Of a stretch of 64,000 nucleotides of DNA, positions 863 through 64,000 are shown one piece after another. The notes beneath the pieces were generated by a model. That model was given only the letters and a program-made list of their open reading frames with translations, had not been told where the DNA came from and made no database searches. The stretch lies in the NCBI GenBank assembly GCA_023255625.1, contig JAHFLF010000001.1, positions 504,074 through 568,073 on the forward strand, given 5' to 3'. Made by a program: the position numbers and the translations under genes. Positions within the stretch are counted from its first letter, which is position 1; the number at the start of each line of letters is the position of its first letter. This stretch comes from Candidatus Harrisonbacteria bacterium (GTDB taxonomy: Bacteria > Patescibacteriota > Minisyncoccia > UBA6257 > 1-14-0-10-44-23).

Positions 863-878
863 TCCGCCAGCTGGCGGA
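863..878. promoter_or_regulatory. Perfect 16-nt palindrome TCCGCCAGCTGGCGGA 15 nt upstream of secE start
   Basis: Seen directly; a near-identical inverted copy (TCCGCCGGCTGGCGGA) lies upstream of gatB at 5126..5141. Confidence 0.4.
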
Positions 879-892
879 TTCGGGAATACTCT

Positions 893-1072
893 ATGAATAA
901 AATCGCAGCATATTTTGCCGGTGCGCAGCAGGAATTTAAACTGATTAAGTGGCCGACATTTGCCGAAACCAGAAAGTTGACTATCGTGGTTATTGCGCTT
1001 TCTGTTCTTTTGGCCGTGTTTCTGGGCATCTTTGATTATTTGTTTACTTGGGGTCTTACAAGATTGATTTAG
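893..1072 (+). CDS. secE: Preprotein translocase subunit SecE
   Basis: 59-aa product MNKIAAYFAGAQQEFKLIKWPTF...one TM; SecE signature (E..KV.WP) and position immediately upstream of nusG. Internal Met chosen over the ORF-track start at 830. Confidence 0.8.
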   Translation: MNKIAAYFAGAQQEFKLIKWPTFAETRKLTIVVIALSVLLAVFLGIFDYLFTWGLTRLI

Positions 1073-1078
1073 AATCAT

Positions 1079-1645: not shown

Positions 1646-1690
1646 CGAGTCAGTTATCAAGTTGTAAAGTTCATCAAGTTTATCAAGTCA

Positions 1691-2038
1691 ATGCCAGCGA
1701 TTGTTCGATTTGAAGATATTATTGCTTGGCAACGGGCCCAAGAATTTGCAGTTGTTGTTTACGATTTATTTAGAGCTAATAAGGATTATAGTTTTAAAGA
1801 TCAGATTGATCGGGCAGTGATCAGTATCTCAAATAATATTGCCGAAGGATATGAGCGTAGAAGTAATAATGAATTTAGGCAATTTCTGTATATTGCGAAG
1901 GGTTCTTGCGGCGAGGCGCGTTCAATGCTTTATATTGCAAAACGATTAGGGTATGCGAGTCAAAGTCAATTTGATAAACTGCAAGATGAGGGTATGCAAA
2001 TTTCAAAAATGCTCTCGGGCTTGATTAAAACACTGTAA
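1691..2038 (+). CDS. Four-helix-bundle protein (TIGR02436 / '23S rRNA intervening-sequence protein' family; Avd-like fold)
   Basis: 115 aa; the pattern AWQ.A..L...VY..F....+...Q..RA.+SI..NIAEG..R.S..EF.QFL.IA.GS..E....L.IA..LGY matches that family. Confidence 0.6.
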   Translation: MPAIVRFEDIIAWQRAQEFAVVVYDLFRANKDYSFKDQIDRAVISISNNIAEGYERRSNNEFRQFLYIAKGSCGEARSMLYIAKRLGYASQSQFDKLQDEGMQISKMLSGLIKTL

Positions 2039-2090
2039 TTCTGTATGCTTGATAAACTTTAGAACTTGATAAACTTGATGAACTAAATCC

Positions 2091-2519
2091 ATGGCATCCA
2101 AACCCGTAAAAGCCGTTGTAAAATTGCAAATCGAGGCCGGTAAGGCCAACCCGGCGCCGCCAATTGGTACTGCGCTCGGCCCGCAGGGTATTAATATCAT
2201 GAATTTTTGCAAGGAGTTTAACGCCGCCACGGCCAAGATGGCTGGCGATGTTATCCCGGCCGTGATCACTATTTACGAGGATCGCAGTTTTAGCTTTATC
2301 ATGAAGACCCCGCCGGCTTCTTCGCTTTTAAAAAAGGCCGCAGGAATTGAGAAGGGGGCTGGTAACCCATTATTGAATAAAGTTGGCAAGGTAACGAAAG
2401 CCGATGTGCGTAAGATTGCCGAGCAGAAGTTGGCAGATTTGAATACGACTGACATTGAAAAGGCCATGAAGACGGTTATGGGTACGGCGCGCAACATGGG
2501 GATTGAAATTGAGGGATAA
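2091..2519 (+). CDS. rplK: 50S ribosomal protein L11
   Basis: Highly conserved L11 sequence (KLQI.AG.ANPAPP.G.ALG..G.NIM.FCK.FNA.T...G..IPV.IT.Y.DRSF.F). Confidence 0.95.
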
Positions 2520-2523
2520 GATT

Positions 2524-2580
2524 TCCGCGCCCTGCTTATTTCGCGAGAACTGGACTCACATTCTCGCGATAACAAGCAGG
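2524..2580. other. Long imperfect hairpin (arms of about 24 nt) immediately after the rplK stop; not a canonical terminator because no U-run follows
   Basis: CGCGCCCTGCTTATTTCGCGAGA ... TCTCGCGATAACAAGCAGGGCGCG seen directly. Confidence 0.4.
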
Positions 2581-2716
2581 GCGCGAAAGCACAGCAAGTT
2601 ATATGAAGATAATGATTTCAAAAATAATGGCGATGCGTATGCAAAACTCAAGATTGCTTGAGGGCATTTGTCATTGCTTGTTTCAGTAAACTTTTTACGA
2701 AATGAACACTGTCAAA

Positions 2717-2747
2717 CGACCTCAAGCGAGGTCGTTTTGATTTTATT
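2717..2747 (+). terminator. Rho-independent terminator (CGACCTCAAGCGAGGTCG + T-run)
   Basis: Perfect 7-bp stem followed by TTTTGATTTTATTT. Confidence 0.6.
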
Positions 2748-2769
2748 TGGCTAACTGAACTAAAAAATT

Positions 2770-3609
2770 ATGAAAATAAAAAATGTACACATCTCGATAG
2801 TTACTGATTGCGGCCGGTCTGATGCTTTGCGCTATGAAATAGGCGCGGCAGCATGTTTTGCTGATGCGCGGTTTAGCATGGGATTCTTTGAAACCGAGAG
2901 CTTTAATACTCTACATGCCGGGTTTGTCGCCGGATCGCATGCTTACGCACCGATTGAGTATTTTTCAGATATTGCGCCACGGATGCAGTTTGGCATTTTG
3001 GTTAATGCGGCTCCAGGCGCAGCGGAGGGGCAGAAGCTGCGCGGTTTAGATAATAAAAGCGATGGTGGGCAAATCTATGCACTGGAACTTAAAAATGGTG
3101 TCTGTGTTGTTGGACCCAATGTTGGCTATAATTTATATTTTTTTCGCGATTTGATCGCGCGCTCTTTCCTTGTAACCGTGTCAAAGAATTCAGACACGCC
3201 GTATCGTTCTCTAGAAATCATGTTGCCGGCGCTTGCGCAGGTTATGGGTGTCAGGAATTTCCCTGGTTTTACGCTCACGCCTAAGAAACTTGATTTGCCC
3301 GAGGTGCAAAATGGGATATATGTTGGCGATAGCGATAGCCACGGCAATATCTATCTGGCTTCGATTGGTCAGGAGCAGGGATTTGTGCCGCGTGTTGGCG
3401 AGGTATTTACAGTGCAAATTGGCGATAAAAGTATCAAGGCGCGGTACACTGATCAATTTTTCGCTGCTCGCGCTGGCGAGTTTACGCTGACAACTGGCAG
3501 TCTTACGCTGGCCGGTAATCCGGTATATTATCTAATACAAATGGGCGGCAGCGCTTCGAATTTTTTCGGCAATCCTGCCGTTGGAACAAAGATTTTAGTT
3601 CAAAAATAA
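2770..3609 (+). CDS. SAM hydroxide adenosyltransferase-like protein (DUF62 / SalL-FlA fold), tentative
   Basis: 279 aa with a two-domain layout; a C-terminal beta-domain pattern (GNIYLASIG...G.V.RVGEVFTV.IGD) resembles DUF62 proteins. Called from memory of the motifs only. Confidence 0.45.
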   Translation: MKIKNVHISIVTDCGRSDALRYEIGAAACFADARFSMGFFETESFNTLHAGFVAGSHAYAPIEYFSDIAPRMQFGILVNAAPGAAEGQKLRGLDNKSDGGQIYALELKNGVCVVGPNVGYNLYFFRDLIARSFLVTVSKNSDTPYRSLEIMLPALAQVMGVRNFPGFTLTPKKLDLPEVQNGIYVGDSDSHGNIYLASIGQEQGFVPRVGEVFTVQIGDKSIKARYTDQFFAARAGEFTLTTGSLTLAGNPVYYLIQMGGSASNFFGNPAVGTKILVQK

Positions 3610-3610
3610 T

Positions 3611-4285
3611 ATGAAAAATTTATCATTTAGCGTTACTAAGGAGGTGCTTGATTTGGGCGTAAAAATTATTACCGCGCGGATTACAGGAGTTAAAAATATT
3701 GAATCAGATGCTGCTTTTGATTTATACAAAAATGCAGAGTTAGAAAAAGTAAAACAGGAGTGGGCCGGCAAAACATACAAAGATGATCCGGTGCTTGGTG
3801 GTTTTCGGGATCTGCATACTAAGGTTGGCAGGAGTAATCGTGAGTATGTTGCCTCGCCGGAAGCACTGCGGCGTTCGTTCTTAGAGCGCGACCGATTTCC
3901 GCACATCAACACCGTCGTAGATATATACAATTTAGTTTCGCTAAAGACAGGGTTGGCTTTGGGCGCACACGACATTGATAAGGTACAGGGAAATATCACG
4001 CTCCGGCTTACAAAAGGTGATGAAAAGTTTATGCCGCTTGGCAAGAGTGAGCCGGTTGCAGTTTTTCCTGGAGAGTATGGATATGTTGACGACGGCAATA
4101 GTGTCATCTGTCGCCTGGAGGTTTTACAAGTCGAGCCGACAAAAATTACTCCTGCTACAAATGATATTTTTCTGATCATTGAAGGCAACGCAAATACTGC
4201 AGCAGAATATGTAAAGCAAGTTGCGGATGAAGTTTGTGAATTAATAGTAAAATTTTGCGGCGGGAAGGTATTATTCCTTATTTGA
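3611..4285 (+). CDS. B3/B4 tRNA-binding domain protein
   Basis: HINTVVDIYNLVSLKTGLALGAHDIDKV.G.ITLRL resembles the B3/B4 domain (PheT-like). Confidence 0.5.
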   Translation: MKNLSFSVTKEVLDLGVKIITARITGVKNIESDAAFDLYKNAELEKVKQEWAGKTYKDDPVLGGFRDLHTKVGRSNREYVASPEALRRSFLERDRFPHINTVVDIYNLVSLKTGLALGAHDIDKVQGNITLRLTKGDEKFMPLGKSEPVAVFPGEYGYVDDGNSVICRLEVLQVEPTKITPATNDIFLIIEGNANTAAEYVKQVADEVCELIVKFCGGKVLFLI

Positions 4286-7708: not shown

Positions 7709-9536
7709 TATGAATTCTTCTCGCTCGATAATTCTTGGTCTTTCATTCTTTTATCATGACGCAGCGGCTGCGTTACTTATAGATGGAGTGCCGGTGGCCA
7801 TGGCGGAAGAAGAGCGTTTTAGCCGCAAAAAGCATGATTCGGGTTTTCCGGTTCAGGCGATTGAGTTTGTTTTGCGTACCGGTGGCGTTTCGGTAGGCGA
7901 TCTGACTGCCGTAGTATTTTATGAAAAGCCCCTGCTCAAGTTTGAGCGTATTTTAAAAAATGCTGTTTCTAATTTTCCCTTCGCGCCCTTTCTATTTGCA
8001 AGAAGTTTAAAAAGTCTCCTGGAGGATAAGATTTGGATCAGACCGCTGATTAGCCGCAAGCTAAATATCAGTCCGCGCAAAATTTATTTTTCTAATCACC
8101 ATCTTTCTCATGCCGCATCGTCTTTTTATCCTTCGCCTTATAAAAAGGCCGCGGTATTAACTCTTGATGGTGTCGGCGAATGGGCAACCTGCTCGCTCGG
8201 TCTGGGCGAGGGCACTCATCTCACAATGTTTAAAGAATTACATTTTCCAAATTCGCTTGGACTTTTATATTCGGCTTTTACTGCCTTTCTTGGTTTTGAG
8301 GTTAATGAGGGGGAATATAAGGTAATGGGTATGGCTCCCTACGGTAAGCCGCAGTATAAAAAATTAGTTGAGAAATTATTGATTACACACGGAGATGGAT
8401 CATGCGGGCTTAATCTAGAGTATTTCAGCTTTCATCGTTCCGGGCGGCGAACTTTTTCCCATAAATTCGTTCAGCTTTTCGGCAAGCCCCGCGAAACGGA
8501 ATCTCATTTTTGTACTCGTCAGACCGGTTGGCCATCTTACTTCGGTAAAAAGCCGGAAGGTGCGGAATACGAGAAGCTCGTTAATGAGCAGGAATATTAT
8601 GCAGATTTGGCGGCTTCAGTGCAGGCCGTACTCGAAGATTGTGTTGTTGCGATGGCTAACCATCTTCACTCGATTACTGGCGGAGACACTCTTTGTTTGG
8701 CGGGTGGAGTGGCCCTGAACTCGGTTATGAATTGGCGGCTTGCGGAACGGACGCCATTTAAACGGATTTTTGTGCAGCCGGCGGCGGGTGACGGAGGAGG
8801 TGCGCTTGGCGCAGCACTTGCCCTGCATCATTTGGCGCTTGGAGGAGCGCGGACTGCGCCGATGCGGCACGCATTTTATGGAGAAAATTACAGTGGCAAA
8901 GAAATTGAGTCGGCGCTTGATGAGCTTAGCGTTAGTTTTGTTAAAATGTCTTCAGAAGAAATTCTTGTTGAAAAAGTCGCTGAATTTTTGAAAAATGGTT
9001 CAGTGATTGGTTGGTATCAGGGCGCATTTGAGTGGGGGCCGCGTGCGCTCGGCAATCGTTCTATAATTGCCGACCCGCGCCGAAATGAGATGAAAGAGAT
9101 CGTAAATACTAAAATTAAGTTTCGAGAGCCATACCGTCCGTTTGCTCCATCAGTACTTGCAGAGTATGCCGATGCTTATTTTAATTTTGGCGATATATCC
9201 GAGAGAGAGCCGGCACGGTTTATGCTTTATGTTGTGCCGGTTAAATCTGACAAGCAGAAAGAGGTTCCGGCGATAACTCATGTTGATGGCTCGGCTCGGC
9301 CGCAGTTGGTCTTTGCGCAGGACTGCCCGCGCTACCATAAACTAATCAGTGCGTTTTATAAAAAAACCGCCGTGCCGATGCTACTGAACACATCTTTTAA
9401 TTTGCGCGGTGAGCCGATTGTAACAACTCCCCAGAATGCGCTAGCTACATTTGCCAAAAGCGGTATGGATTATCTTATTATGGATACTTATATTATTAGC
9501 CGAAAAGACCTTGCTAATTCAAAACTTTTCGCATGA
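7692..9536 (+). CDS. Carbamoyltransferase, NodU/CmcH (HypF-like) family
   Basis: N-terminal ILGLS.FYHD.AAALL.DG....A.EEERF.R.KH and the C-terminal carbamoyltransferase domain. An alternative start at 7710 (MNSSRS...) avoids overlap with the upstream gene. Confidence 0.85.
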   Translation: MSANFSMNSSRSIILGLSFFYHDAAAALLIDGVPVAMAEEERFSRKKHDSGFPVQAIEFVLRTGGVSVGDLTAVVFYEKPLLKFERILKNAVSNFPFAPFLFARSLKSLLEDKIWIRPLISRKLNISPRKIYFSNHHLSHAASSFYPSPYKKAAVLTLDGVGEWATCSLGLGEGTHLTMFKELHFPNSLGLLYSAFTAFLGFEVNEGEYKVMGMAPYGKPQYKKLVEKLLITHGDGSCGLNLEYFSFHRSGRRTFSHKFVQLFGKPRETESHFCTRQTGWPSYFGKKPEGAEYEKLVNEQEYYADLAASVQAVLEDCVVAMANHLHSITGGDTLCLAGGVALNSVMNWRLAERTPFKRIFVQPAAGDGGGALGAALALHHLALGGARTAPMRHAFYGENYSGKEIESALDELSVSFVKMSSEEILVEKVAEFLKNGSVIGWYQGAFEWGPRALGNRSIIADPRRNEMKEIVNTKIKFREPYRPFAPSVLAEYADAYFNFGDISEREPARFMLYVVPVKSDKQKEVPAITHVDGSARPQLVFAQDCPRYHKLISAFYKKTAVPMLLNTSFNLRGEPIVTTPQNALATFAKSGMDYLIMDTYIISRKDLANSKLFA

Positions 9537-11079: not shown

Positions 11080-11409
11080 CTATCGTTTCTGATTTTCCTT
11101 TGCGAATTTTACCTGGCATTCTTTGGCGAGTGTAATGCATTCCTCGGGGTCGTAGCCAAGCTCGTCGCAGTGCCTGATAGTTGAGAAGATGAGGTTGCCA
11201 AGTTCTTTTTTCAGCTCTGCGTCGGTATGAGTTTTGACATCTTTAGTGGCATTTCGCTCGTAGCGGCAGATGTCGCCGAAAACTTTACCAATGCGAACAA
11301 TGATTTGCGCGAGGGGCAGCTTCTTATCGCCCCAGATTGCGCGTGATTCTTTAAGCAATCCCTTTATTTCCATAAGTTTAAGTATATCAGAATCCTGAAA
11401 GTTATTCAC
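11080..11409 (-). CDS. MazG-like nucleotide pyrophosphohydrolase (small single-domain type)
   Basis: 109 aa with the EL.KELG.++......A..LG pattern of the MazG nucleotide pyrophosphohydrolase family. Confidence 0.6.
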   Translation of the reverse strand: MNNFQDSDILKLMEIKGLLKESRAIWGDKKLPLAQIIVRIGKVFGDICRYERNATKDVKTHTDAELKKELGNLIFSTIRHCDELGYDPEECITLAKECQVKFAKENQKR

Positions 11410-11423
11410 TGGGTCAGTTTGAC

Positions 11424-11445
11424 ATATACCCCCTAGGGGGTATAT
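11424..11445. promoter_or_regulatory. Putative CsoR operator: perfect 22-bp palindrome ATATACCCCCTAGGGGGTATAT
   Basis: Seen directly, ending 6 nt before the csoR start; CsoR operators are GC-core inverted repeats of the TACCC...GGGTA type. Confidence 0.55.
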
Positions 11446-11450
11446 ACATA

Positions 11451-11732
11451 GTGTATATGAAATACAGCATCAATAAAAAAGAGCCGCGGCTTATTCAACG
11501 ATTAAAAATTATTGAAGGGCAGATTCGCGGATTGCAGCGAATGGTTGAGGAGGGGAAATACTGCATTGATGTCATTGCCCAGACCTCGGCCGTGAAACAG
11601 GGGCTCTCCAATGTTGAAGATTTGCTTATGGAGGGGCATTTGAGCGGGTGCGTTGTCCACCAGATTCAGTCCGGTCAGATAGATAAGGCGAAGCGCGAAA
11701 TTTTGAAAGTGTATAGGTTGAAGCGTAAATAA
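11451..11732 (+). CDS. csoR: CsoR/RcnR-family metal-sensing transcriptional repressor
   Basis: 93 aa; RL.RIEGQ.RGL.+M......C.D...Q..AV..+L......++E.HL..C motif; precedes copA. Confidence 0.8.
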   Translation: MYMKYSINKKEPRLIQRLKIIEGQIRGLQRMVEEGKYCIDVIAQTSAVKQGLSNVEDLLMEGHLSGCVVHQIQSGQIDKAKREILKVYRLKRK

Positions 11733-43733: not shown

Positions 43734-44543
43734 ATGTCTGGTGAACGGTTTTATGTCGATCAAGATGCCGCAGCAGAGATGCTGCGCACCCGCACCCCAC
43801 TCCGGGATCGGGTGGAGTGCTGGTGGGCACAGCAGGGGTTCGCCTTCCCCGATGTCTTCGCTCGTCATCATCAGATCGGCTTCGTTTCGCGACACCTGGC
43901 CACGGCGCGGTTTGAGGACGCGGCCTTCGTCGTGATGGCGGAGCTGATGGGGCTGCGGCCCGTCTGGTCCACCTACATCGGTGATGAGTTCGTCACCTTC
44001 TCGCCGGTCAAGTGCTCGTATGTGCAGCCCCTCGTGTTCGATCGGTTCGCCGGCAAGCCCGATAAGCCAGAACCGGTTCTTCGCAAGGTTCGTCTTGCGA
44101 ATCCAGAGTGCTGTCAGGGCGAGCGACTCAACAGGATCATGGTGCAGGGCGGCAGTTCGCTCGTCGCGTGGCACCAGAACCGGCTTCTCACGATGTACCC
44201 AGGTGCGCTCGTCACGGATCCGACCGAGATCTATCGGCGTCTCGGTGGTGCGCGCAACTACTATGTCTTCCTCCTGTCGCTCGCGGCGGCGCATGGCGTC
44301 CTCTTCGAGGATTTCCATGGAGGCGAGACGGGGGAGCCACTGATGAAGTTCACGCGGGAGATCTTTGAACCCGCGTTCGACAAGGTCGCCGAGCTGTTTG
44401 GCGCACCACCGGTGGTGGTCCGGCTCCCGTGGTGGCGCGAACTCGGTTACTATGTGTCTGAAGCAGATCTCGTGAACGGATGGAGAGACAGCCCGGCGCT
44501 CAAGCATCTCGCCAGGGCGCACAGCCCTTGCGCTCGGATGTAG
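43734..44543 (+). CDS. GC-rich hypothetical protein (269 aa), unknown function
   Basis: AGGAGG ribosome-binding site; nested inverted repeats in the 5' leader; about 62% GC. Confidence 0.5.
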   Translation: MSGERFYVDQDAAAEMLRTRTPLRDRVECWWAQQGFAFPDVFARHHQIGFVSRHLATARFEDAAFVVMAELMGLRPVWSTYIGDEFVTFSPVKCSYVQPLVFDRFAGKPDKPEPVLRKVRLANPECCQGERLNRIMVQGGSSLVAWHQNRLLTMYPGALVTDPTEIYRRLGGARNYYVFLLSLAAAHGVLFEDFHGGETGEPLMKFTREIFEPAFDKVAELFGAPPVVVRLPWWRELGYYVSEADLVNGWRDSPALKHLARAHSPCARM

Positions 44544-49082: not shown

Positions 49083-50210
49083 ATGGCGAGGACATTGTCT
49101 CGGTCGCACCTATCGCGATCGTCGCTCGGATCAAGGTGTTTCGGCGGGGGCGTCAGCATGCGTTTCTGCTGTACATCGGGTCGGCCCGGAGTGGTCAAGA
49201 AGGCGAAGCCGCCTGTGGAGGCCGCCCCTCCGAAGCCCACAATGACTTTCAGCCCGGAGCCTTCTGGCATTCTGTGCGGTGAGTGCGGCAAGCTGAAGGC
49301 GACTCGCCGAGTGGCGTGGGACGGCAAGTTCGTGGGTCGTATCTGCGAGCAGGTCGCCTGCGAATGGAAGGCCATCGAGGACGGCAGTTCCTGGAGGCCG
49401 CGGGTTCCGGCCCCGGCCAGGAAGCCGCAGCCGGCGGTATCCGCCCCGACGGCCAGCCGTGAAGACACGGAGCGGGCCGCTGCTGGGAGGTTCGTTCGTG
49501 AGGGCAGGAGACCCATGCGGCCGGGCAGCGTCGTTCAGCCGAGTTCCCGGGCGACGACGCCCGCACCAGCGGCTGGCATCGATTCCAGTCGGATCAAGGC
49601 GGGTGTGAGGGGATACATGGATGCGTCCAAGAGATGCGTCTGCGGAGGGCATGCGTTCTACGACATCTCTCTCGACGGCGTCCTCATCGGGCAGGCGTGC
49701 TGGGATTCCGCATGCCACAGGAAGTTGGCCACGCAGCATGAGGCAGGGAGCAGCGTGCCGACCGCTGCTGCGACGCCTGCTGTCGCTGACCGGTGGTTCA
49801 CGAAGCCGTTGTCGGCCCGCTCGAGTGGTCTCAAGTGTGCAGTCTGCGGAGCACTCGCGCACTACGAGCTTCTACGCAATGATCGGCCAGTCGGTCTTCT
49901 GTGCTGGCTGGACATCTGCGAGACGACGCTCAAGGAGAGCATCGCCTCCAACAAGCCGCAGGCGGTATCCACCGCGAGCGTCCAGCCCGCGCCCGTGGAC
50001 ATGCGGCATTCGGTGGGGACAGCCGGTTTGTGCAACTTCTGTGGCCGTAGGCACTGGCTGGATATGTCGTTCTACGCGCCTAACGGCGAACTGCTCGGTA
50101 CTAGCTGCATCGAACCTGCCTGCGTCGCCAATGCGAAGGCGAGGGCCCGTCTGGGCGAGAGCTGGACCCAGAAGCAGCCGGCGGCTTCTGGAGGAGGCGG
50201 GCCCCACTAG
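49083..50210 (+). CDS. High-GC protein with four tandem Cys-ribbon-like repeats (CxxCG-x15-19-C-x4-6-C) separated by Pro/Ala-rich linkers
   Basis: Repeats CGECGK..GRICEQVAC / CVCGGH..GQACWDSAC / CAVCGA..GLLCWLDIC / CNFCGR..GTSCIEPAC; GGAGAGAGG ribosome-binding site; about 65% GC; the exact start is uncertain. Confidence 0.5.
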   Translation: MARTLSRSHLSRSSLGSRCFGGGVSMRFCCTSGRPGVVKKAKPPVEAAPPKPTMTFSPEPSGILCGECGKLKATRRVAWDGKFVGRICEQVACEWKAIEDGSSWRPRVPAPARKPQPAVSAPTASREDTERAAAGRFVREGRRPMRPGSVVQPSSRATTPAPAAGIDSSRIKAGVRGYMDASKRCVCGGHAFYDISLDGVLIGQACWDSACHRKLATQHEAGSSVPTAAATPAVADRWFTKPLSARSSGLKCAVCGALAHYELLRNDRPVGLLCWLDICETTLKESIASNKPQAVSTASVQPAPVDMRHSVGTAGLCNFCGRRHWLDMSFYAPNGELLGTSCIEPACVANAKARARLGESWTQKQPAASGGGGPH

Positions 50211-54840: not shown

Positions 54841-55176
54841 TTAGGAGAGCGCTTTTTTTGCTGCTCTGGTTTTCTTACGATTTTTTTCCTGTCCCGCCAG
54901 AAGATTTGCTATTTTTTGATCCAGCAGGTCGTATGCCGCCTGCCTTATTGTATCGCGTGGAACATTTGCGAACTTTGAATCCGGCTGGCGGTCAACAGTT
55001 CTATCGATGGCGCTTTTGGCATTTTCTGTCCGTTCGTGGACCGTTCCTATGCCGTATGTTTCTGTAAATACAGTGAAACAGGTTTCTGCTATGTCGCCAG
55101 CCAGCCGCCTTAATTCGGCACTTTCATCACGGGCGCTCACTTCTTGTTTTGCAGGGTCAATTCCTTCGGATGTCAT
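54841..55176 (-). CDS. Hypothetical protein
   Basis: 111-aa ORF. Confidence 0.3.
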   Translation of the reverse strand: MTSEGIDPAKQEVSARDESAELRRLAGDIAETCFTVFTETYGIGTVHERTENAKSAIDRTVDRQPDSKFANVPRDTIRQAAYDLLDQKIANLLAGQEKNRKKTRAAKKALS

Positions 55177-55235
55177 GCTGCTATTATGACAGCAGTAGTA
55201 ATCTCAAAGCAAGCCCGCTATTATATACAGACGAT

Positions 55236-56150
55236 ATGGCTAAGTCCTTATTACATAGGCCGCTGCTTGGTGCCCATGTGTCTGCCGCGGGCGGACTGTG
55301 GAATGCAATTGATAACGGCGAGAAGCTTGGCGCGGAGTGCATTCAAATTTTTGGCGCCAGTCCGCGGAGTTATACAGCTAAACTCCCGACAGCTGAAACA
55401 ATCGTGCGTTTTCAGCAGCGGCTCAAAGAGAGTCCAATCAAAAAAGTGTATCAGCACGGGGCGTATCTGGTGAATCTTGGGAGCGCTGATACGGCGACCC
55501 TGAAGCGGTCAATTGGAAATCTAGCAGCACATCTAGAAATCGCAAACTTGATTGGTTCTGAAGGAGTTATTTTTCATGTGGGTTCGCCTAACGGCGGTGA
55601 TCGTCCGGCGGCGCTTGCAAGCGCCGCCGGAGCAATGAAAGAAATTTTGGGAAAAATAAAAGGCCCGGCGCAGCTCATTATGGAAAATTCCGGCAGCGTG
55701 AAAAAGATCGGCGGGAGTATCGCAGATCTAGAATGGATTTTCAAAAAAGTAAATGATCCGCGGCTCAAAATTTGCATTGATACCGCGCACGCGTTTGAAG
55801 CGGGCTTAATCGAGGCATACACACCGGCGAATATAAAAAAGTTTTTTGGCGCATGGGATGAAGCGGTCGGGTTAGAGAATGTAGTTGCGCTGCATGCGAA
55901 TGATTCAAAGACGCTCTATAATTCGCAAAACGATAAGCATGAGAATATCGGGCAGGGGTATATTGGTATTGCCGGGTTTCGGGCTTTGGCCGGTTTTGCG
56001 GCGAAGCCGCAAAACCGGCTGACCCACACCAGCTGGTTTTTAGAAGTTCCCGGGTTTCCCGCCGGAGGCGGGTCCGCCTCCGGCGGAGACGGGAAACAAA
56101 ACGGTCCGGATAAGCAGAATATGGATTTGCTGAAGAGCTGTTTTGGCTGA
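55236..56150 (+). CDS. nfo: Endonuclease IV (AP endonuclease family 2) with C-terminal in-frame palindromic insertion
   Basis: LLGAHVS..GG, the characteristic His/Glu/Asp metal ligands (HG.YL.NL; H.NDSK), start at MAKSLL. Confidence 0.85.
   Translation: MAKSLLHRPLLGAHVSAAGGLWNAIDNGEKLGAECIQIFGASPRSYTAKLPTAETIVRFQQRLKESPIKKVYQHGAYLVNLGSADTATLKRSIGNLAAHLEIANLIGSEGVIFHVGSPNGGDRPAALASAAGAMKEILGKIKGPAQLIMENSGSVKKIGGSIADLEWIFKKVNDPRLKICIDTAHAFEAGLIEAYTPANIKKFFGAWDEAVGLENVVALHANDSKTLYNSQNDKHENIGQGYIGIAGFRALAGFAAKPQNRLTHTSWFLEVPGFPAGGGSASGGDGKQNGPDKQNMDLLKSCFG
56058..56087. repeat. 30-bp palindrome CCCGCCGGAGGCGGGTCCGCCTCCGGCGGA, in-frame in nfo (encodes PAGGGSASGG)
   Basis: Differs from the uvrB/dus copies only at the outer positions of the left arm. 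Confidence 0.8.
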
Positions 56151-59077: not shown

Positions 59078-60145
59078 ATGCAGCAAGGATTTTGGGCAAA
59101 GTTACAAAAGCCAATTTTTGCGCTTGCGCCGATGGCCAATGTTACGGACGCGGCTTTTCGGCGCATCATCGCGAAGTACAGCCGGCCGGCTGGGCCAGCG
59201 GTTTTTTGGACAGAGTTTGTCTCGGTAGAAGGATTATTATCACGCGGGCGCGAAAAGTTGCTGCCGGATTTTTGGTTCACGGAAGCCGAAAGGCCAATCG
59301 TGGCGCAGATTTTTGGCGGTAAGCCGGAGCAATTTTATGAAGTTGCCAAACTGATTGTTTCTCTTGGCTTTGATGGGATTGATATTAATATGGGTTGTCC
59401 AGACAAAGGCGTAGAAAAATCCGGCGGCGGAGCGGCATTAATAAAAAATCCGAAGCTCGCGCAAAAAGTTATTTTAGAAACTAAGCGGGGAATAGCTGAT
59501 GCGTCCGCCAGTGGACGGAGTTCAATTCCGGTTTCAGTAAAAACGCGTCTCGGATATAATAAAGATGAAATAGAAACCTGGTTGCCAGCGCTGTTTGAAA
59601 CTGGTTTGGCGGCGCTCACAATTCACCTGCGCACGCGCAAGGAGATGAGTTTGGTGCCCGCGCACTGGGAATGGGCGAGCCGGGCCGTCGCACTACGCGA
59701 TAAATATGGTCCGGAAACTTTGCTACTCGGAAACGGCGATATTCCGAATCTTACTGTCGGCCGTCAACTGTCCGCTGACCACGGACTTGATGGCGTCATG
59801 CTCGGCCGCGCTATTTTTGGCAATCCGTGGTTGTTTGCCGAAAAAATTCCAACCACCGAAGAAAAATTGAGCGTCTGCGTAGAGCATACAAAATTATTTG
59901 AGGAATTGTATGGTGCAGGCACCGTCCAGTCCGTCATCCCGAAGCCGAGGGATCTCACCCCTCGCATCAAGCCCTTTGACTTGATGAAAAAGCATTTTAA
60001 GGCCTATGTCAGCGGTTTTTCCGCCGGAGGCGGATCCGCCTCCGGCGGAGATGGTGGAGCATTAAAGGTACTGCGCATGAAAATGATGGAAGCGGAGACC
60101 GCGCAAGAGATTGAAAAGATTGTTGCGAATTTTTTTAAAAAATGA
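59078..60145 (+). CDS. dus: tRNA-dihydrouridine synthase
   Basis: N-terminal LAPMA..TD..FR, the catalytic-Cys region, the FMN-binding TIM-barrel pattern; carries a half MITE-like element (59933..59958) and the 30-bp palindrome (60020..60049) in-frame near the C-terminus. Confidence 0.8.
   Translation: MQQGFWAKLQKPIFALAPMANVTDAAFRRIIAKYSRPAGPAVFWTEFVSVEGLLSRGREKLLPDFWFTEAERPIVAQIFGGKPEQFYEVAKLIVSLGFDGIDINMGCPDKGVEKSGGGAALIKNPKLAQKVILETKRGIADASASGRSSIPVSVKTRLGYNKDEIETWLPALFETGLAALTIHLRTRKEMSLVPAHWEWASRAVALRDKYGPETLLLGNGDIPNLTVGRQLSADHGLDGVMLGRAIFGNPWLFAEKIPTTEEKLSVCVEHTKLFEELYGAGTVQSVIPKPRDLTPRIKPFDLMKKHFKAYVSGFSAGGGSASGGDGGALKVLRMKMMEAETAQEIEKIVANFFKK
59933..59958. repeat. Half-copy of the MITE-like element, inverted orientation, in-frame in dus (encodes SVIPKPRDLTPR)
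   Basis: GTCATCCCGAAGCCGAGGGATCTCAC. Confidence 0.55.
60020..60049. repeat. 30-bp perfect palindrome TCCGCCGGAGGCGGATCCGCCTCCGGCGGA, in-frame in dus (encodes SAGGGSASGG)
   Basis: Identical to the uvrB copy. Confidence 0.85.
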
Positions 60146-60166
60146 GCCCACGCGCCGCCACAGGGG

Positions 60167-60637
60167 CTAGCAGATGGGCTCAACGATTTCGTAGATCGCC
60201 CAGACGATCCAGAAAATGATTCCGAACAAGACGACCGCAGACCAGAACAGCGTGTAGCCGTTCAGATGATCGGACCAGGTCACCTTTTCGGGAGACTGCG
60301 CGTCCTCGTCCCCAGGGTCTTCCTCCTCTGATTCGTCGGGATCAGAGGCGAAGTCGTCCTCGCCATCGTCCTCGCAGTCCTGCGGATCACAGAACGATGC
60401 GTGCCTCATGTGCTCTATGAAGAGGTCTAGTTGGCTGGACGAGAGGGGAAGGTTCTCGCCAGGTTTTAGTCTCGCGGCATGCATCCAGAGGAATTCTATC
60501 CTCAGCTCGGCGGTACTTCTTGAGTCTCCGTTGCTCGTGAAGTAGCCGAGGACCAGATTGTAAGTCTCCTCGGCAGCGTCTCTGCCAAGGCCGCAATCCG
60601 GACACGCGTCCGGATCATCGTCCACATCATGCGACAT
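60167..60637 (-). CDS. High-GC acidic protein (CPDC pair near N-terminus, poly-acidic stretch, C-terminal TM)
   Basis: 156-aa ORF; about 60% GC. Confidence 0.45.
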   Translation of the reverse strand: MSHDVDDDPDACPDCGLGRDAAEETYNLVLGYFTSNGDSRSTAELRIEFLWMHAARLKPGENLPLSSSQLDLFIEHMRHASFCDPQDCEDDGEDDFASDPDESEEEDPGDEDAQSPEKVTWSDHLNGYTLFWSAVVLFGIIFWIVWAIYEIVEPIC

Positions 60638-60771
60638 GGGATTCTCCTTCTGCGTGAGGGGTTTAGGGTCAATAAGACAATATCAAAATTGCATTTTCCC
60701 GTCCGTTCGTCAAATGTGACTCGGGCCGCCGACAGGGTGTGTCGGCGGCCCGAAGCGGGTGCGCGATGGCT

Positions 60772-60915
60772 TCATCGCGCGTCCGAATCATCTTCCACTC
60801 GTTGCGGAAATTGATCCGGTTGATCGCTGTCGCGTCCGTAGGAACGCGTTGGCGGTGGATATTGCGGTTCCCGGTCTTCGTCGCGCCAGACCGGCAGCTC
60901 GAACGGTTCGGCCAT
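60772..60915 (-). CDS. 47-aa acidic, proline-rich small protein (tentative)
   Basis: GGAGGG ribosome-binding site 5 nt upstream; 1 nt after the stop of the upstream small ORF (translational coupling). Confidence 0.3.
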   Translation of the reverse strand: MAEPFELPVWRDEDREPQYPPPTRSYGRDSDQPDQFPQRVEDDSDAR

Positions 60916-60916
60916 C

Positions 60917-61015
60917 TCACCCTCCGTTCATGTGGACGCCTTCGCATCCGGTGAAGCATGCGACGATGATCAGGGCGATGGTCCAGATGATCGCGAAAAT
61001 GTCTCGTTTGCTCAT
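60917..61015 (-). CDS. 32-aa membrane peptide MSKRDIFAIIWTIALIIVACFTGCEGVHMNGG (tentative)
   Basis: AGGAG ribosome-binding site; single TM helix. Confidence 0.3.
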   Translation of the reverse strand: MSKRDIFAIIWTIALIIVACFTGCEGVHMNGG

Positions 61016-61025
61016 TCTGAAACTC

Positions 61026-61415
61026 CTACCTGGTCTGACTTCCGATTCGTTGCGCCCGCAGCTCCATGCGGATTGCGTAGACCCGTTCGAGCAGAGCGAG
61101 GCGTGAGAGGGGGCGACCCTTCTCGTCGCAGAGAAGCAGGCGTCGCGCCGACATCTCTTGCTGATAGAAGCGCTTGAATGAACTATTCCGGGCTTGGTGT
61201 TGCAGCATCTCCTTGATGCCGATCCACGCCCAGAATGCATTCAGGCCGACGAATACCCATGTTCTGCTAAGCGTAGCGCTGATGGATAGGAGGAGTGCCC
61301 CCATTCCGTTCATGCTCGCGAGCAGGAGTTGTCGCTTGTCGCCCCGACTTGCCAGCCAGTAGGCGACCAAGAGCATGGTTGCGCCGCAAATGCCGGCAAG
61401 ATCTCCTATCCCCAT
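61026..61415 (-). CDS. High-GC membrane protein (3-4 TM), unknown function
   Basis: AAGGAGG ribosome-binding site 8 nt upstream. Confidence 0.45.
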   Translation of the reverse strand: MGIGDLAGICGATMLLVAYWLASRGDKRQLLLASMNGMGALLLSISATLSRTWVFVGLNAFWAWIGIKEMLQHQARNSSFKRFYQQEMSARRLLLCDEKGRPLSRLALLERVYAIRMELRAQRIGSQTR

Positions 61416-61566
61416 GTGTGCCGCCTCCTTGTTGCGGTACTTTCTTTATATTCTCTTGTTATGATTTGGTCAAATGTCTTAGCTTGGTCTATTCTGTAAG
61501 CATGAACCGGGCAGTGAAAATGCGAGTAGTGCCCGGAAATATTAACACTCGCATTTCTACTGCCCG

Positions 61567-64000
61567 GTGAACTTTGCCCAAGAACTAAAAAAATTAAACC
61601 CCAAGCAGCGGCAGGCCGTTCTAGCCATTGAGGGGCCGGTGATGGTTGTGGCGGGACCGGGCACGGGCAAGACGCAGATTTTGACGCTGCGGATTGCTAA
61701 CATTTTAAAGACGGCTCAAGTCGAGCCGGAGAATATTCTGGCGATCACTTTCACCGAGTCGGGCGTTGCAGCGATGCGCAAGCGGCTGGCCGAGCTCATT
61801 GGCAGCGAGGCGTATGGTGTAACGATCACAACCTTTCACGCATTCTGCAATAACATCATCCGTGAGCACCCCGAGAGCTTTCCGCGGATTATCGGCTCTA
61901 CGCCGATGACGGAGGTGGATCAAATGAAGGTGTTAGAAGCGCAAATCGCAAAGCGCAAAGCGCCAATTTTGAAACCGTTTGGTGAGCCATTGTTCTACGT
62001 AAAGGACATTGCTAAGGCGATTGACGAGTTAAAGCGCGAAAATATTTCGCCGGAGCAGTTTGCAAAAATTGCTAAGCAGGAACTAAAAGATGCCGAGAAT
62101 GATCCCGAGGCGTATCACGCAAAAGGCAAATTTAAGGGGCGGCTCAAGGGCGAGTACGCGCGAGCAATAAAGCACGCGCAGAAGAATATTGAACTTGCGC
62201 AGATTTACGAGGCATATCAGCAGGCGCTTACTAAACAGAAACGGTATGACTACACTGACATGATCATGGAGGCGGTTAAGGTTCTGGGAAGTAAGGAGGG
62301 GGTGCGTTTTGGCTTATTATTTGAGTTGCAGGAAAAGTATCAATATGTGCTAGTTGACGAGCATCAGGACACCAACAACGCGCAGAATAAGTTGCTGGAG
62401 CTCATCATGAGTTTTCACAAAGACCCGAATTTGTTTGTGGTCGGTGATGCCAAGCAGGCGATTTACCGTTTCCAGGGTGCCTCACTGGAAAACTTTTTGT
62501 ACTTTAAGAAATTGTATCCGCGCGCGAAGTTGATTGAGCTAACCGACAACTATCGCAGCACACAACATATCCTGGACGCCGCACATTCCATTACGAGAGT
62601 GGACGAAATCAAGCTGATCGCCCGCGCAGACCATCCGAAGCGAGAGATTTTGACCGCTGCGCTTTCCAGTGATGTCGCCGAACAATATTTCGTCGCTAAA
62701 CATGTTAGCGAGAGGTTGGCCTCTGGCGTGAGCCCGCACGAGATTGCAGTGCTGTATCGCAATAACAAAGATGTGCTGCCTATCGCCATGATGCTGGAGC
62801 GGTTGAATATTCCGTTTACCATTGAATCTGCGCAAAACATTTTTGATGATCCGGAGATAAAAAAATTGCGCACACTTTTGACTGCAATCGCCAAGTTTGG
62901 CAATCACGAGTTTTTGGCCGTCTTACTCTATGCTGATTTTCTGGGAATTGATGCTCTCGACGCCCACCGAGTGATTGCGTATGCGCGCCGCCCTCGGCCC
63001 CAGTCTGTCATTGCGAGTACTCGAAGCAATCCATCTCCGCATCCCACCCGCCCACTTTCCATTTATGATGTCCTAAAATCCCCGCAACTCCTGAAAGCAG
63101 CCGGAGTAGAAAATCCGCAGCCATTCCTAAAACTCTACGAAAATCTTTCCCGCTGGCGAAGTGCGGCGCAGTATCACGGCGCTGGCGAGGTCTTTGAGAT
63201 TGCGGTGCAAGAGAGCGGTTTTTTGGCGCATATTCTTTCAAAACAAAACGGCGTAGATATTTTGCATAAATTAAATGTATTTTTTGACGAGCTTAAGGAT
63301 TTAACCGAACAAAGAGGATCGCTTGTGCTCCAGGAATTTGTTGAGTACTTAGATATGCTGGATGAGCACGAGTTACTAATTAAACGAGTACCCGCCGCCC
63401 ATCGCCAGATTGGCCGCGTTCGGCTCATGACCGCGCACGCCAGCAAAGGGCAGGAGTTTGATTATGTCTATATTATCGGGGCGGTAGATGGCCATTGGGG
63501 GAATAAGCGGAAAGTGGAGATGCTCAAGCTGCCTCGTAGTATCTACTCTCCCTCCGTCATCCCGAAGCCGAGGGATCTCGCCCCATCCGACTCCGACGAC
63601 GATCGCAACCTTTTCTATGTTGCTTTGACCCGTGCCCGCAAAGAGGTAGTGATTAGTTATGCCGAGGCAGCAGCAAGTGGTAAGGAGCAGCTGCCAAGCG
63701 AGTTTGTGGCTGACATTAAATCAGAACTTATTGAACAGGTGAGCGTTGAGTCGTATGAGGGAGATTTAGTAACTATGCCGCAGCTTATTTACCAAAAGCC
63801 AACTGCCGGGCAGCATAGGATCAAAGAAAAAGAGTTTGTCAGTGAGCTATTCCTGGAGCGCGGTCTTTCGGTTACGCATCTTAACAATTATTTAGACTGC
63901 CCGTGGAAATATTTCTTTGTTAATTTATTGCGTATTCCGGAGCATAAGAATAAGCACATGATGTATGGAAGCGCCGTGCACGAGGCGCTTGAAGTGTTTT
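61567..64000 (+). CDS. UvrD/PcrA/Rep-family ATP-dependent DNA helicase, N-terminal about 810 aa (runs off window end); probable GTG start
   Basis: LNPKQRQAV......P.MVVAGPGTGKTQ.LT.RIA, AITFTE.....M+.RL, TFHAFC, VDEHQDTN, GD..Q.IY.FQGA; absent from the ORF track because it is unterminated; contains MITE-like fragments at 63006..63032 and 63556..63582. Confidence 0.8.
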   Translation, partial: MNFAQELKKLNPKQRQAVLAIEGPVMVVAGPGTGKTQILTLRIANILKTAQVEPENILAITFTESGVAAMRKRLAELIGSEAYGVTITTFHAFCNNIIREHPESFPRIIGSTPMTEVDQMKVLEAQIAKRKAPILKPFGEPLFYVKDIAKAIDELKRENISPEQFAKIAKQELKDAENDPEAYHAKGKFKGRLKGEYARAIKHAQKNIELAQIYEAYQQALTKQKRYDYTDMIMEAVKVLGSKEGVRFGLLFELQEKYQYVLVDEHQDTNNAQNKLLELIMSFHKDPNLFVVGDAKQAIYRFQGASLENFLYFKKLYPRAKLIELTDNYRSTQHILDAAHSITRVDEIKLIARADHPKREILTAALSSDVAEQYFVAKHVSERLASGVSPHEIAVLYRNNKDVLPIAMMLERLNIPFTIESAQNIFDDPEIKKLRTLLTAIAKFGNHEFLAVLLYADFLGIDALDAHRVIAYARRPRPQSVIASTRSNPSPHPTRPLSIYDVLKSPQLLKAAGVENPQPFLKLYENLSRWRSAAQYHGAGEVFEIAVQESGFLAHILSKQNGVDILHKLNVFFDELKDLTEQRGSLVLQEFVEYLDMLDEHELLIKRVPAAHRQIGRVRLMTAHASKGQEFDYVYIIGAVDGHWGNKRKVEMLKLPRSIYSPSVIPKPRDLAPSDSDDDRNLFYVALTRARKEVVISYAEAAASGKEQLPSEFVADIKSELIEQVSVESYEGDLVTMPQLIYQKPTAGQHRIKEKEFVSELFLERGLSVTHLNNYLDCPWKYFFVNLLRIPEHKNKHMMYGSAVHEALEVF
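63006..63032. repeat. Variant palindromic fragment TGTCATTGCGAGTACTCGAAGCAATCC in-frame in the helicase gene
   Basis: Related to the GTCATTCTGAGCG...GAAGAATC arm of the MITE-like family. Confidence 0.35.
63556..63582. repeat. Half-copy of the MITE-like element, inverted orientation, in-frame in the helicase gene (encodes SVIPKPRDLAP)
   Basis: GTCATCCCGAAGCCGAGGGATCTCGCC. Confidence 0.55.

Follow-up and report, generated by a model that had tools for sequence, protein, structure and literature searches.

In this Paceibacteria/Harrisonbacteria-like bacterium, the dus gene and the gene for a UvrD-type helicase are separated by a foreign segment that carries four ORFs (p129, p32, p47 and p156), which tile the minus strand without overlap, precisely as an earlier note on this DNA had described them. 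Its high-GC core runs from about 60150 to 61440. GC content is 0.55-0.62 over 60100-61450 (300-nt windows), against a mean of 0.478 for the window, the whole 64-kb stretch of DNA that was analysed; the same note had drawn attention to this GC-rich cassette between the two genes. At least four islets of this kind, the insert included, are found in the window. The flanking genes are native: dus is 63-67% identical to Patescibacteria homologues, and the helicase, a protein of 1020 aa whose gene extends beyond the window end, matches from its GTG start at 61567 the start of its counterpart in the closest available relative residue for residue. We consider p129 and p156 to be well-supported genes, and p32 and p47 to be possible small genes. 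Coordinates are collected in Table 1.

Table 1. Features of the dus/helicase junction and of the segment inserted there
Feature	Position	Strand	Basis
dus, tRNA-dihydrouridine synthase, native flank	59078..60145	+	PF01207, E 1.2e-48
Intrinsic terminator of p156	60137..60181	-	Terminator scan match
Inserted foreign segment, ~1.42 kb	60146..61566		dus stop codon to helicase GTG start
p156, 156 aa, predicted tail-anchored protein	60167..60637	-	Codon GC, SD, hydropathy, AF2
Promoter-like element P2 upstream of p156, ACATTTGACG	60685..60717	-	Read from sequence
Double GC-rich hairpin directly after p47 stop	60721..60785	-	Inverted repeats I4, I8
p47, 47 aa, acidic Pro-rich putative soluble peptide	60772..60915	-	SD, coupled start
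p32, 32 aa, MSKRDIFAIIWTIALIIVACFTGCEGVHMNGG	60917..61015	-	GC3, SD
p129, 129 aa, predicted 3-TM membrane protein	61026..61415	-	Family match, codon GC, SD
Promoter-like element P1 upstream of p129, ACATTTGACC	61445..61477	-	Read from sequence
22-bp inverted repeat, right edge of insert	61506..61568		Inverted repeat I2
UvrD-type helicase, C-terminal PD-(D/E)XK domain, native flank	61567..64000	+	Pfam families

The closest relative available is L031 (Dus 67% identical); there, dus (41..1048) and the helicase gene (1014..4070) overlap by 35 nt, with no insert and no GC excursion. This overlap fixes the insertion point to the nucleotide. The next relative (L003) has a 414-nt insert at the dus/helicase junction, holding a high-GC minus-strand gene led by a Shine-Dalgarno (SD) site; this insert and ours show no significant similarity in blastn, tblastx or BLASTP, and shared ancestry of the two was rejected on that basis. 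A 12-mer shared with another L003 islet was also set aside, as its orientation is inconsistent and its occurrence within chance. Neither L031 nor L003, the two comparators at the orthologous site, contains the segment; the comparison at this junction covers no more than three genomes. Because L031 has no insert and the content of the L003 insert is unrelated, we interpret the segment as a lineage-specific horizontal insertion. The dus|helicase and uvrA|uvrC junctions are each occupied, in two genomes from different datasets, by islets that are unrelated to one another, and the 10-mer GCCCACGCGC is present at both dus-side boundaries and unique in the window.

The signatures of mobility that were looked for did not turn up: there is no integrase or transposase Pfam family within +/-10 kb, no tRNA gene in the 64-kb window and no direct repeat flanking the insert. 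Of terminal inverted matches, the insert ends offer a single one (I9), an A/T run of 10 nt that lies within the flanking genes. Exact look-ups of the neighbouring proteins for strain variants that lack the island returned only the same population.

Composition, codon usage and translation signals all set the cassette apart from the native genes. Its RSCU has a correlation of r = 0.03 with that of native genes, against 0.82 between one native set and another, and of r = 0.64-0.78 with that of other high-GC islets in the window. All four cassette ORFs have AGGAG or GGAGG 5-9 nt upstream of ATG (AGGAGG 8 nt before p129, AGGAG 7 nt before p32, GGAGG 5 nt before p47 and AAGGAG 6 nt before p156), whereas a strong SD site at the start was found in 0 of 55 native ORFs of at least 100 aa (background frequency 3%). 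This contrast had been pointed out before, as had the core reading of a horizontally acquired small-protein module, which is supported and now has a comparative footing in the gene overlap of L031, the RSCU correlation and the SD contrast. Because the native genes use no SD sites, foreign genes can be recognised here by their translation signal alone; for the same reason, efficient translation of the cassette in this host is not assured. The genes of the islets are all SD-led, with GC3 of 0.71-0.90, among native genes that are not SD-led.

The insert also carries signals that could drive and end its own transcription. P1 comprises a -35 hexamer TTGACC (61473-61468), a 17-nt spacer and TATAAA (61450-61445); it fails the rule of the promoter scan tool that a -10 hexamer must end in T. 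P2, likewise not called by the tool, has its -35 hexamer at 60713-60708, a 17-nt spacer ending in TGc and AATTTT at 60690-60685. The two elements have in common a 12-nt box, ACATTTGAC (repeat family D5). The double hairpin consists of a 14-bp perfect stem (60721-60753) and a second stem (60756-60785) and is followed by no U-tract; its RNA folding energy is -54.8 kcal/mol (z -6.9), and it is likely to be the end or an attenuator of a first unit. The terminator of p156 is a GAGCCCA...TGGGCTC stem ahead of AUUUUUU (-29.7 kcal/mol, z -3.0); its 3' arm and U-tract lie over the final codons, stop included, of the convergent dus. The 22-bp inverted repeat at the insert's right edge has arms that are 91% complementary around a 19-nt loop, and its 3' arm reaches the helicase GTG start codon. 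This repeat is unique in the window (-40.6 kcal/mol, z -8) and has no counterpart in L003 or L031; a search of Rfam (gathering and E<=1) gave only two chance miRNA-hairpin matches, both on it.

Residues 5-67 of p129 match the NCBIfam profile NF047864 (CBU_0592 family) over positions 3-67 of 72 (65 positions) with 25.6 bits (E 8.6e-6), 0.6 bits above the curated cutoff of 25, and a precomputed match to PF26604 is on record. Like the family, this part of p129 comprises three hydrophobic helices. The protein is nonetheless more than a membrane domain of about 72 residues standing essentially alone: at 129 aa, it has a further C-terminal tail of about 60 aa (residues 68-129; net charge about +8, pI 10.8), an extension that is basic, helical and outside the membrane; it lies beyond the reach of the 72-position profile and has no family match of its own. 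Hydropathy and AF2 bear out three of the three to four TM helices proposed earlier, add the basic tail and give no fourth; the AF2 helices (3-23, 27-46, 52-76, 78-95 and 105-127) are of low confidence. Literature searches for CBU_0592 and PF26604 gave nothing, the family being uncharacterised. As CBU_0592 has no known function and no literature, membership says nothing on mechanism; tentatively, the cassette gives the family its first co-encoded partners.

The N-terminal domain of p156 (about 90 aa) holds C12xxC15, H76, H79, C83 and C88 and is followed by a polyacidic linker (90-118) and a TM helix (126-152) within a hydrophobic segment (126-156); the protein has 37 D/E residues in all. The C12-P-D-C15 pair, the D/E tract and the C-terminal TM segment read from the sequence in the earlier note are all present. 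The C-terminal helix is confident in AF2 (pLDDT 88-97) and agrees with the hydropathy for a TM segment, and the N-terminal domain should lie in the cytosol. The membrane character of the cassette proteins in general is read from hydropathy, charge and AF2 helices, among which this one is confident. Zinc-binding anti-sigma factors (ZAS) have H-x3-C-x2-C in the N-terminal anti-sigma domain and are encoded next to an ECF sigma factor gene. We rejected p156 as a member, as its Cys/His pattern (C12xxC15 plus H76xxH79xxxC83xxxxC88) has no HxxxCxxC and there is no Pfam match and no sigma factor gene nearby.

In p32, the basic n-region is MSKRD; a hydrophobic core and IIVA|C20 follow. C20 conforms to a PROSITE-type lipobox rule, {DERK}(6)-[LIVMFWSTAG](2)-[LIVMFYSTAGCQ]-[AGS]-C with Cys at 15-35 and K/R in the first seven residues, and p32 is the sole plausible ORF in the window for which this holds. 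It may be a single-TM micropeptide or possibly a pre-lipoprotein. Its GC3 of.78 fits the coding pattern and one independent assembly has a gene call at this place, which makes p32 plausible as a coding sequence. The p32 stop (60917-60919) and the p47 ATG (60913-60915) are 1 nt apart (TGAgATG), as noted before, and p47 is putatively translationally coupled to p32. Its acidic and Pro-rich character is likewise as described (pI 4.2, 8 Pro). The GC1/2/3 values of p47 (.77/.47/.57) show no GC3 signal, so that the argument for its coding status comes from the SD site and the coupled start only; two assemblies have a gene call there, and p47 is unproven as a gene.

Homologues of the small ORFs had been named as a check, and the outcome was negative. 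Against 5.8 billion protein clusters, p129 and p156 retrieved only themselves, also when the search was repeated at E<=10; exhaustive phmmer with p156 against 1.84 billion representatives found only p156, and each of the four ORFs forms a single-member 90% cluster in the protein collection. Nothing was found for the four by phmmer in 7,780 stop-to-stop frames (about 650 kb of related Patescibacteria loci), nor for p129 and p156 by tblastn in plasmid records. Pfam searches with separate domains at E<=10 gave nothing, and a sequence search of PDB gave insignificant matches only. Confidence is low in both single-sequence AlphaFold models made for the two larger proteins (pLDDT 58.6 and 65.8, pTM 0.27), which for this reason provide no fold evidence; Foldseek with the p129 model found nothing in PDB below E=2.6, a meaningless result.

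It has to be asked whether the ORFs are genes at all. Their lengths are within chance for this composition: of 2000 dinucleotide shuffles of this region, 25% have a longest ORF of at least 156 aa and 16% contain two ORFs of at least 129 aa. The insert could then be real but decaying foreign DNA, its ORFs being partly chance frames or relics that SD-independent translation leaves unexpressed. This view would also accommodate the plus-strand and alternative-frame ORFs of 96-115 aa in the region, the lack of any other match to the four ORFs in the collections searched, the GC3 value of p47, the absence of SD sites from native genes and the high-GC filler between uvrA and uvrC in L003, which has no clean ORF. 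The codon positions speak against it. GC3-GC2 is 0.02+/-0.06 in random ORFs, and the values of p129 (GC1/2/3 =.60/.47/.71) and p156 (.59/.40/.71) are reached by at most 0.05% of them (P<=0.0005), that of p156 by 0 of 2173. A correctly spaced SD site at four of four starts exceeds chance, as such a site precedes 2% of random ORFs; the HMM match of p129 lies above a curated cutoff, the terminators at both unit ends are intact, and the sequence is identical across assemblies, with no frameshifts. Weighing both sides, we regard decay as fairly unlikely.

Codon-position GC, the family match and the terminators firmly support p129 and p156; they make p32 plausible and do nothing for p47. The earlier note had given lack of conservation, together with long ORFs on the opposite strand, as grounds for abandoning the genes; self-only matches and a plus-strand ORF of 115 aa are just what we find, and the genes are retained solely on evidence that the note did not use (codon-position GC, the CBU_0592 match and the terminators). 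Three alternative gene models, 60917..61240(-) of 107 aa, 60669..60959(-) of 96 aa and 60759..61106(+) of 115 aa, were rejected for their atypical codon-position GC (GC2>=GC1) and Arg-rich, junk-like sequence, and also because they have no SD site and overlap hairpins or promoter-like elements.

If the ORFs are genes, the insert might be a toxin/immunity or addiction module in which membrane-active p32 and/or p129 is neutralised by acidic p47 or p156, and this would explain its persistence in a streamlined genome. A hydrophobic peptide of 32 aa coupled to an acidic ORF of 47 aa, the complementary charges of the basic p129 tail and of p156 and p47, the cassette's own promoter-like elements and its strain-specific occurrence would all suit such a module, and the layout resembles small toxin/antidote pairs in general terms. 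However, none of the four ORFs has a match in PADLOC at E<=0.1 or to a toxin, antitoxin or immunity family of Pfam or NCBIfam, there is no antisense RNA or Rfam match, and homologues elsewhere are lacking, though addiction modules usually spread. We therefore think a toxin/immunity module unlikely; the suggestions of a toxin/immunity, bacteriocin or stress-module function made earlier received no positive support from PADLOC, PHROGs, Pfam, phage or plasmid matches.

Less probable still is the remnant of a phage lysis or exclusion cassette, with p129 as a class-I-like holin and p32, perhaps joined to p47 through a +1 shift at GGG-TGA-G behind a GGAGGG motif, as a small Pro-rich lipoprotein of the o-spanin type. 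Three TM helices in N-out/C-in orientation with a highly charged basic C-tail (p129), agreement with the lipobox rule (p32) and a Pro-rich reading frame in +1 at the p32 stop (p47) correspond to general properties of holins and spanins. Yet no ORF has a PHROGs match, p129 and p156 have no tblastn match in 50,697 phage records and no close relative in IMG/VR contigs, and the cassette adjoins dus and a helicase gene, with neither an endolysin gene nor any other gene of a phage within +/-10 kb. The family of p129 consists of chromosomal membrane proteins, not holins, and p156 has its TM helix at the C-terminus, where an i-spanin does not. This makes the phage reading very unlikely. An assembly artefact, in which reads of a high-GC organism were chimerically joined into a Patescibacteria contig, would account for the abrupt composition jump in a sequence from metagenome assembly but is extremely improbable, since an ENA assembly (126 kb contig), the NCBI contig (601,890 nt) and Logan assemblies of two runs all contain the same sequence, a Logan contig of 2,171 nt runs from dus through the island into the helicase gene at 100% identity, and the terminator of p156 and the stop codon of dus interlock.

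On balance, we think it somewhat probable that the insert is a lineage-specific, horizontally acquired and self-expressed micro-island of about 1.4 kb, encoding small membrane proteins at the dus/helicase junction; the cassette is best read as an autonomous module that consists of two units and encodes small proteins of the cytoplasmic membrane. The foreign DNA, about 1.4 kb, would have entered exactly at the junction of what is, in the closest relative, an overlapping, operon-like pair, and would be self-sufficient for expression on the strand opposite to dus and helicase. In the first unit, the TTGACC-17-TATAAA element would drive p129, p32 and p47, each with its own SD site, and the double GC-rich hairpin would close it; in the second, the other element with the ACATTTGAC box would drive p156 as far as the stem and U-tract terminator, which seems to borrow the A/T-rich 3' end of dus. 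The basic tail of p129 should face the cytoplasm because of the positive-inside rule. p156 would be tail-anchored and present its Cys/His-containing, extremely acidic domain to the cytoplasm, p32 would be a single-TM or lipobox peptide, and p47 may be an acidic peptide in soluble form. As we infer it, these proteins would most likely act as a small accessory assembly in the membrane, with the acidic cytosolic p156 and p47 binding or regulating the basic tail of p129. Such a module would serve a non-essential envelope function and would be neither an enzyme nor a defence system.

The insertion is an ordinary kind of event, and the cassette is one more acquired islet in a Patescibacteria genome that cannot be annotated. 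Its value is that of a clean and well-delimited example, four small ORFs with complete expression signals. The SD contrast could offer a simple way to screen whole genomes of such lineages for recent acquisitions, and donors, if identified, would give hints at the partners of these uncultivated bacteria. A bolder proposal, which we hold to be decidedly unlikely, is an undescribed class of self-expressing, high-GC, SD-led micro-cassettes that have no linked recombinase, recurrently colonise dus|helicase and uvrA|uvrC in Harrisonbacteria-like Patescibacteria and deliver small envelope proteins. The unrelated islets in both junctions, the SD-led islet genes and the shared 10-mer are compatible with such a class. 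Were it true, the cargo might have been captured from high-GC organisms that live with or host these ultra-small bacteria, the islets would record, as molecular fingerprints, partners not otherwise known, and the four genes together would constitute a new membrane system of small proteins.

Several known systems resemble the micro-island in part. It shares with an integron gene cassette the compact build from small ORFs and the place at a site that is used recurrently and has other cargo in a relative. It differs in having its own promoter-like elements, where integron cassettes are promoterless, and in having no attC-type site or paired R'' core and no intI gene nearby; a regex search of 60050-61650 on both strands found no paired attC cores and one GTTRRRY only, and an integron cassette was rejected. 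Like peptides of the entericidin EcnA/EcnB type, p32 agrees with a lipobox rule and is of about that size; mature p32 would have 13 residues, however, and no other lipobox protein is found in the window. The three TM helices and basic tail of p129 recall the layout of class I holins, here with no endolysin gene, and Pfam, NCBIfam, PHROGs and PADLOC gave no sequence or profile similarity to EcnA/EcnB-type pairs or class I holins. In Patescibacteria, horizontally transferred genes and islands make up to 13% of genome length (PMC12455944). The insert agrees with those islets in being foreign in composition, lineage-specific and placed at a junction that is occupied in a relative. It stands apart from them in its very small size (1.4 kb), in having no mobility gene, tRNA gene or repeat boundaries, and in its cargo, which is without detectable homologues and SD-led among native genes that have no SD sites.

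The foreign, GC-rich segment between dus and the UvrD-like helicase gene (the cassette, or insert) is an inserted, self-contained unit coding for two or more genuine small membrane proteins. The earlier note's description of four minus-strand ORFs (p129, p32, p47 and p156, named by length in amino acids), with their coordinates, high GC, AGGAG-type ribosome-binding sites and 1-nt gap that separates the p47 ATG from the stop codon of p32, was confirmed. GC is 0.55-0.62 over 60100-61450 (300-nt windows) against a window mean of 0.478, and AGGAG or GGAGG lies 5-9 nt upstream of all four ATGs. Searches of the cassette found no Rfam family at threshold and no tRNA gene.

Coordinates of the cassette, the other islets and the repeats (window positions, except for L003, a relative's locus used for comparison)
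Feature	Position	Strand	Description
p129	61026..61415	minus	ORF
p32	60917..61015	minus	ORF
p47	60772..60915	minus	ORF
p156	60167..60637	minus	ORF
dus	59078..60145		cassette flank; PF01207
UvrD/PD-(D/E)XK helicase gene	GTG start 61567, continues past window end		other cassette flank
Two consecutive GC-rich hairpins	60721-60785		after p47 stop; -54.8 kcal/mol, z -6.9, no U-tract
22-bp inverted repeat	61506-61568		right edge of insert; -40.6 kcal/mol, z -8
10-mer GCCCACGCGC	60146-60155; L003 8107-8116		dus-side boundary
Islet	34673-36522		OMP-decarboxylase-like gene and second ORF (start 35596)
Islet	43634-44620		269-aa ORF without family, 43734..44543
Islet	48695-50351		between uvrA and uvrC; 375-aa Cys-rich repetitive ORF, 49083..50210
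L003 islet	1831-2170		uvrA-uvrC junction; high-GC filler
L003 islet	8102-8515		dus-helicase junction; 80-aa SD-led ORF 8178..8420, minus
L003 islet	11294-11769		after helicase gene; 104-aa SD-led lipoprotein-like ORF 11364..11678, minus, GC3.90
42-nt perfect-palindrome repeat	42594-42635		in uvrB
42-nt perfect-palindrome repeat	56051-56092		in gene 55149..56150
42-nt perfect-palindrome repeat	60013-60054		in dus
75-nt element	46890-46964		in uvrA
75-nt element	51057-51131		in uvrC
Repeat copy	46083-46119		intergenic
32-nt element	59930-59961		in dus
32-nt element	63553-63584		in helicase gene

We compared the ORFs with a chance model of 2000 dinucleotide-preserving shuffles of 60146-61566. Their length is not beyond chance: the longest ORF reached at least 156 aa in 25% of shuffles, two ORFs of at least 129 aa occurred in 16%, and the plus strand of the real sequence also holds ORFs of up to 115 aa. 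The codon-position GC of p156 and p129, together with the placement of Shine-Dalgarno (SD) sites, is beyond chance. GC at codon positions 1, 2 and 3 (GC1/2/3) is.59/.40/.71 in p156 and.60/.47/.71 in p129; among random shuffle ORFs (at least 100 aa, n=2173), GC3-GC2 is 0.02+/-0.06, and differences of 0.24 and 0.31 are found in 0.05% and 0/2173, respectively. A strong SD precedes 4/4 cassette ORFs, compared with 2% of random ORFs and 0/55 native ORFs. Non-functional, decaying DNA, with which the ORF lengths would be compatible and the codon-position GC would not, is in our judgement unlikely. The coding pattern is matched by p32 (GC3.78); p47 (.77/.47/.57) departs from it, its high GC1 being due to a D/E/P/R/Q-rich composition, and p47 is a putative coding ORF by virtue of its SD, its coupled start and the lack of a plausible competing frame: the other frames are Arg-rich, lack an SD and cross the hairpins. 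The native ORFs scored were of at least 100 aa, with the SD sought at -20..-4 (background 3%), and the upstream regions of native genes are A/T-rich. As native genes essentially lack SD sites, in this genome an SD sets foreign genes apart from native ones.

Residues 5-67 of p129 match the CBU_0592 membrane-protein family (25.6 bits, E 8.6e-6; curated cutoff 25), on which a literature search found nothing, and a precomputed PF26604 match is on record. Three hydrophobic helices, with a basic first loop, are followed in this protein by a 60-aa tail carrying a net charge of ~+8 (pI 10.8); the positive-inside rule predicts an N-out/C-in topology. Thus a membrane protein of three helices stands from the earlier reading of 3-4 TM segments, and the fourth helix does not. 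In p32, a basic n-region leads into a hydrophobic core of 14 residues and then IIVA/C20; it is the sole plausible ORF in the window to fit a PROSITE-type lipobox rule, and would be a micropeptide with a single TM segment or else a pre-lipoprotein whose mature part has 13 residues. The putative p47 product is acidic (pI 4.2), with 8 Pro, and has no hydrophobic segment. The fourth protein, p156 (37 D/E overall, pI 4.05), lacks a signal peptide; its N-domain combines three weakly predicted helices with C12xxC15, H76, H79, C83 and C88, and its C-terminal TM helix is confidently predicted, which would make it tail-anchored.

We infer that the products may come together as a small accessory assembly of the cytoplasmic membrane that has five TM helices altogether. 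The strongly acidic cytosolic domain of p156, and perhaps p47 as well, would engage the basic tail that p129 extends into the cytoplasm, and a metal ion may be bound by the Cys and His residues of p156. The overall statement (foreign insertion, coding small membrane proteins, accessory assembly with a p129-p156 interaction) is in our view somewhat probable, and insertion, coding status and membrane location carry most of its weight, the interaction model little.

Searches with p156 and p129 against 5.8 billion clusters, and an exhaustive phmmer search with p156 against 1.84 billion representatives, returned only the queries themselves, and each of the four ORFs forms a single-member cluster. 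Phage and plasmid records, IMG/VR, PHROGs, PADLOC and PDB sequences gave no match for the ORFs tested in each, nor did ~650 kb of related Patescibacteria loci. The functions suggested earlier (toxin/immunity, bacteriocin, stress module) remain unsupported; a toxin/immunity-type module we regard as distinctly unlikely. Very unlikely, too, is a phage remnant of holin/spanin type, in which p32 and p47 might be joined by a +1 fusion at GGG-TGA-G behind GGAGGG. The insert is a small HGT islet of small membrane proteins without detectable relatives and one member of an uncharacterised family.

Promoter-like sites can be read upstream of p129 (ACATTTGACC, 17 nt, TATAAA, then a ~22-nt leader with AGGAGG) and of p156 (ACATTTGACG, 17 nt ending TGc, AATTTT, then AAGGAG). 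They have a 12-nt box in common; neither was called by a promoter scan tool, which insists on a T at position 6 of the -10 hexamer. The p156 stop is followed by an intrinsic terminator (a stem, then AUUUUUU); its 3' arm and U-tract lie over the final codons and the stop of dus, which is convergent. From these sites, the terminator and the hairpins after p47, the insert seems to comprise two autonomous units of transcription, one with p129, p32 and p47, the other with p156. The 22-bp inverted repeat is unique in the window, ends within the helicase GTG start codon and has a counterpart in neither relative (L003, L031); if the helicase mRNA includes this repeat, the helicase start would be sequestered. 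That start is ATG in the relatives and GTG in the window, where the overlap with dus is lost. Given these changes and the inverted repeat, the insertion may have altered helicase expression.

Dus homologues assign the window to Patescibacteria (Paceibacteria), the best genome match being Candidatus Harrisonbacteria MAG L003 (63% identity) and the best metagenome contig L031 (67%). L031 shows a 35-nt overlap of dus (41..1048) with the helicase gene (1014..4070) and a steady GC of 0.47-0.54. A gap of 414 nt (60% GC) lies between these genes in L003; it holds a different minus-strand ORF (80-97 aa, GGAGG site, GC3.78), and the inserts of L003 and the window have no significant similarity. The N-terminal residues of the window helicase align one for one with the L031 start, and the Dus C-terminus ..NFFKK* corresponds to ..EFLK* in L003; the insertion of ~1.42 kb thus falls exactly between the stop of dus and the start of the helicase gene. 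In codon usage (RSCU), the cassette shows no correlation with native genes (r=0.03, versus 0.82 between two native sets). Together with the insert-free L031 junction, this supports and sharpens the earlier proposal of horizontal acquisition; HGT and genomic islands are already known in Patescibacteria (PMC12455944). Neither an attC site nor a direct repeat, and no gene for a recombinase or a tRNA, is associated with the insert. An assembly chimera is extremely improbable, as one 2,171-nt contig covers both junctions and the arrangement is 100% identical in an ENA assembly and in Logan assemblies of two runs.

The cassette is not alone: the window has three further islets (high-GC segments flanked by native genes), of 60-62% GC, and their SD-led genes have GC3.74-.83 and cassette-like codon usage. 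The high-GC islets of L003, whose native genes also lack SD sites, are unrelated to those of the window. Both genomes carry GCCCACGCGC 1-6 nt after the dus stop codon, as the 3' arm of a minus-strand terminator hairpin, in inserts that are otherwise unrelated; the 10-mer is single-copy in the 64-kb window (0.28 expected by chance). Among the three genomes compared, this common boundary hints at either hotspot use or a common ancestral terminator. That such cassettes form a recurrent class marking partner organisms is decidedly doubtful.

Repeats also occur inside coding genes. The 75-nt copies are 93% identical, and UvrA and UvrC both carry RHSERSEESR..DPSG[IV]PQDDK from them; the 32-nt copies are 97% identical, that in Dus being translated as SVIPKPRDLTP. 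The 42-nt palindrome (core TCCGCCGGAGGCGGA-TCCGCCTCCGGCGGA), at which Logan contigs end, sits in three core coding genes and is read in frame as ..SAGGGSASGG..; its Dus copy is a 12-aa insertion missing from both relatives. In this the palindrome recalls the in-frame mobile insertions known as Rickettsia palindromic elements.
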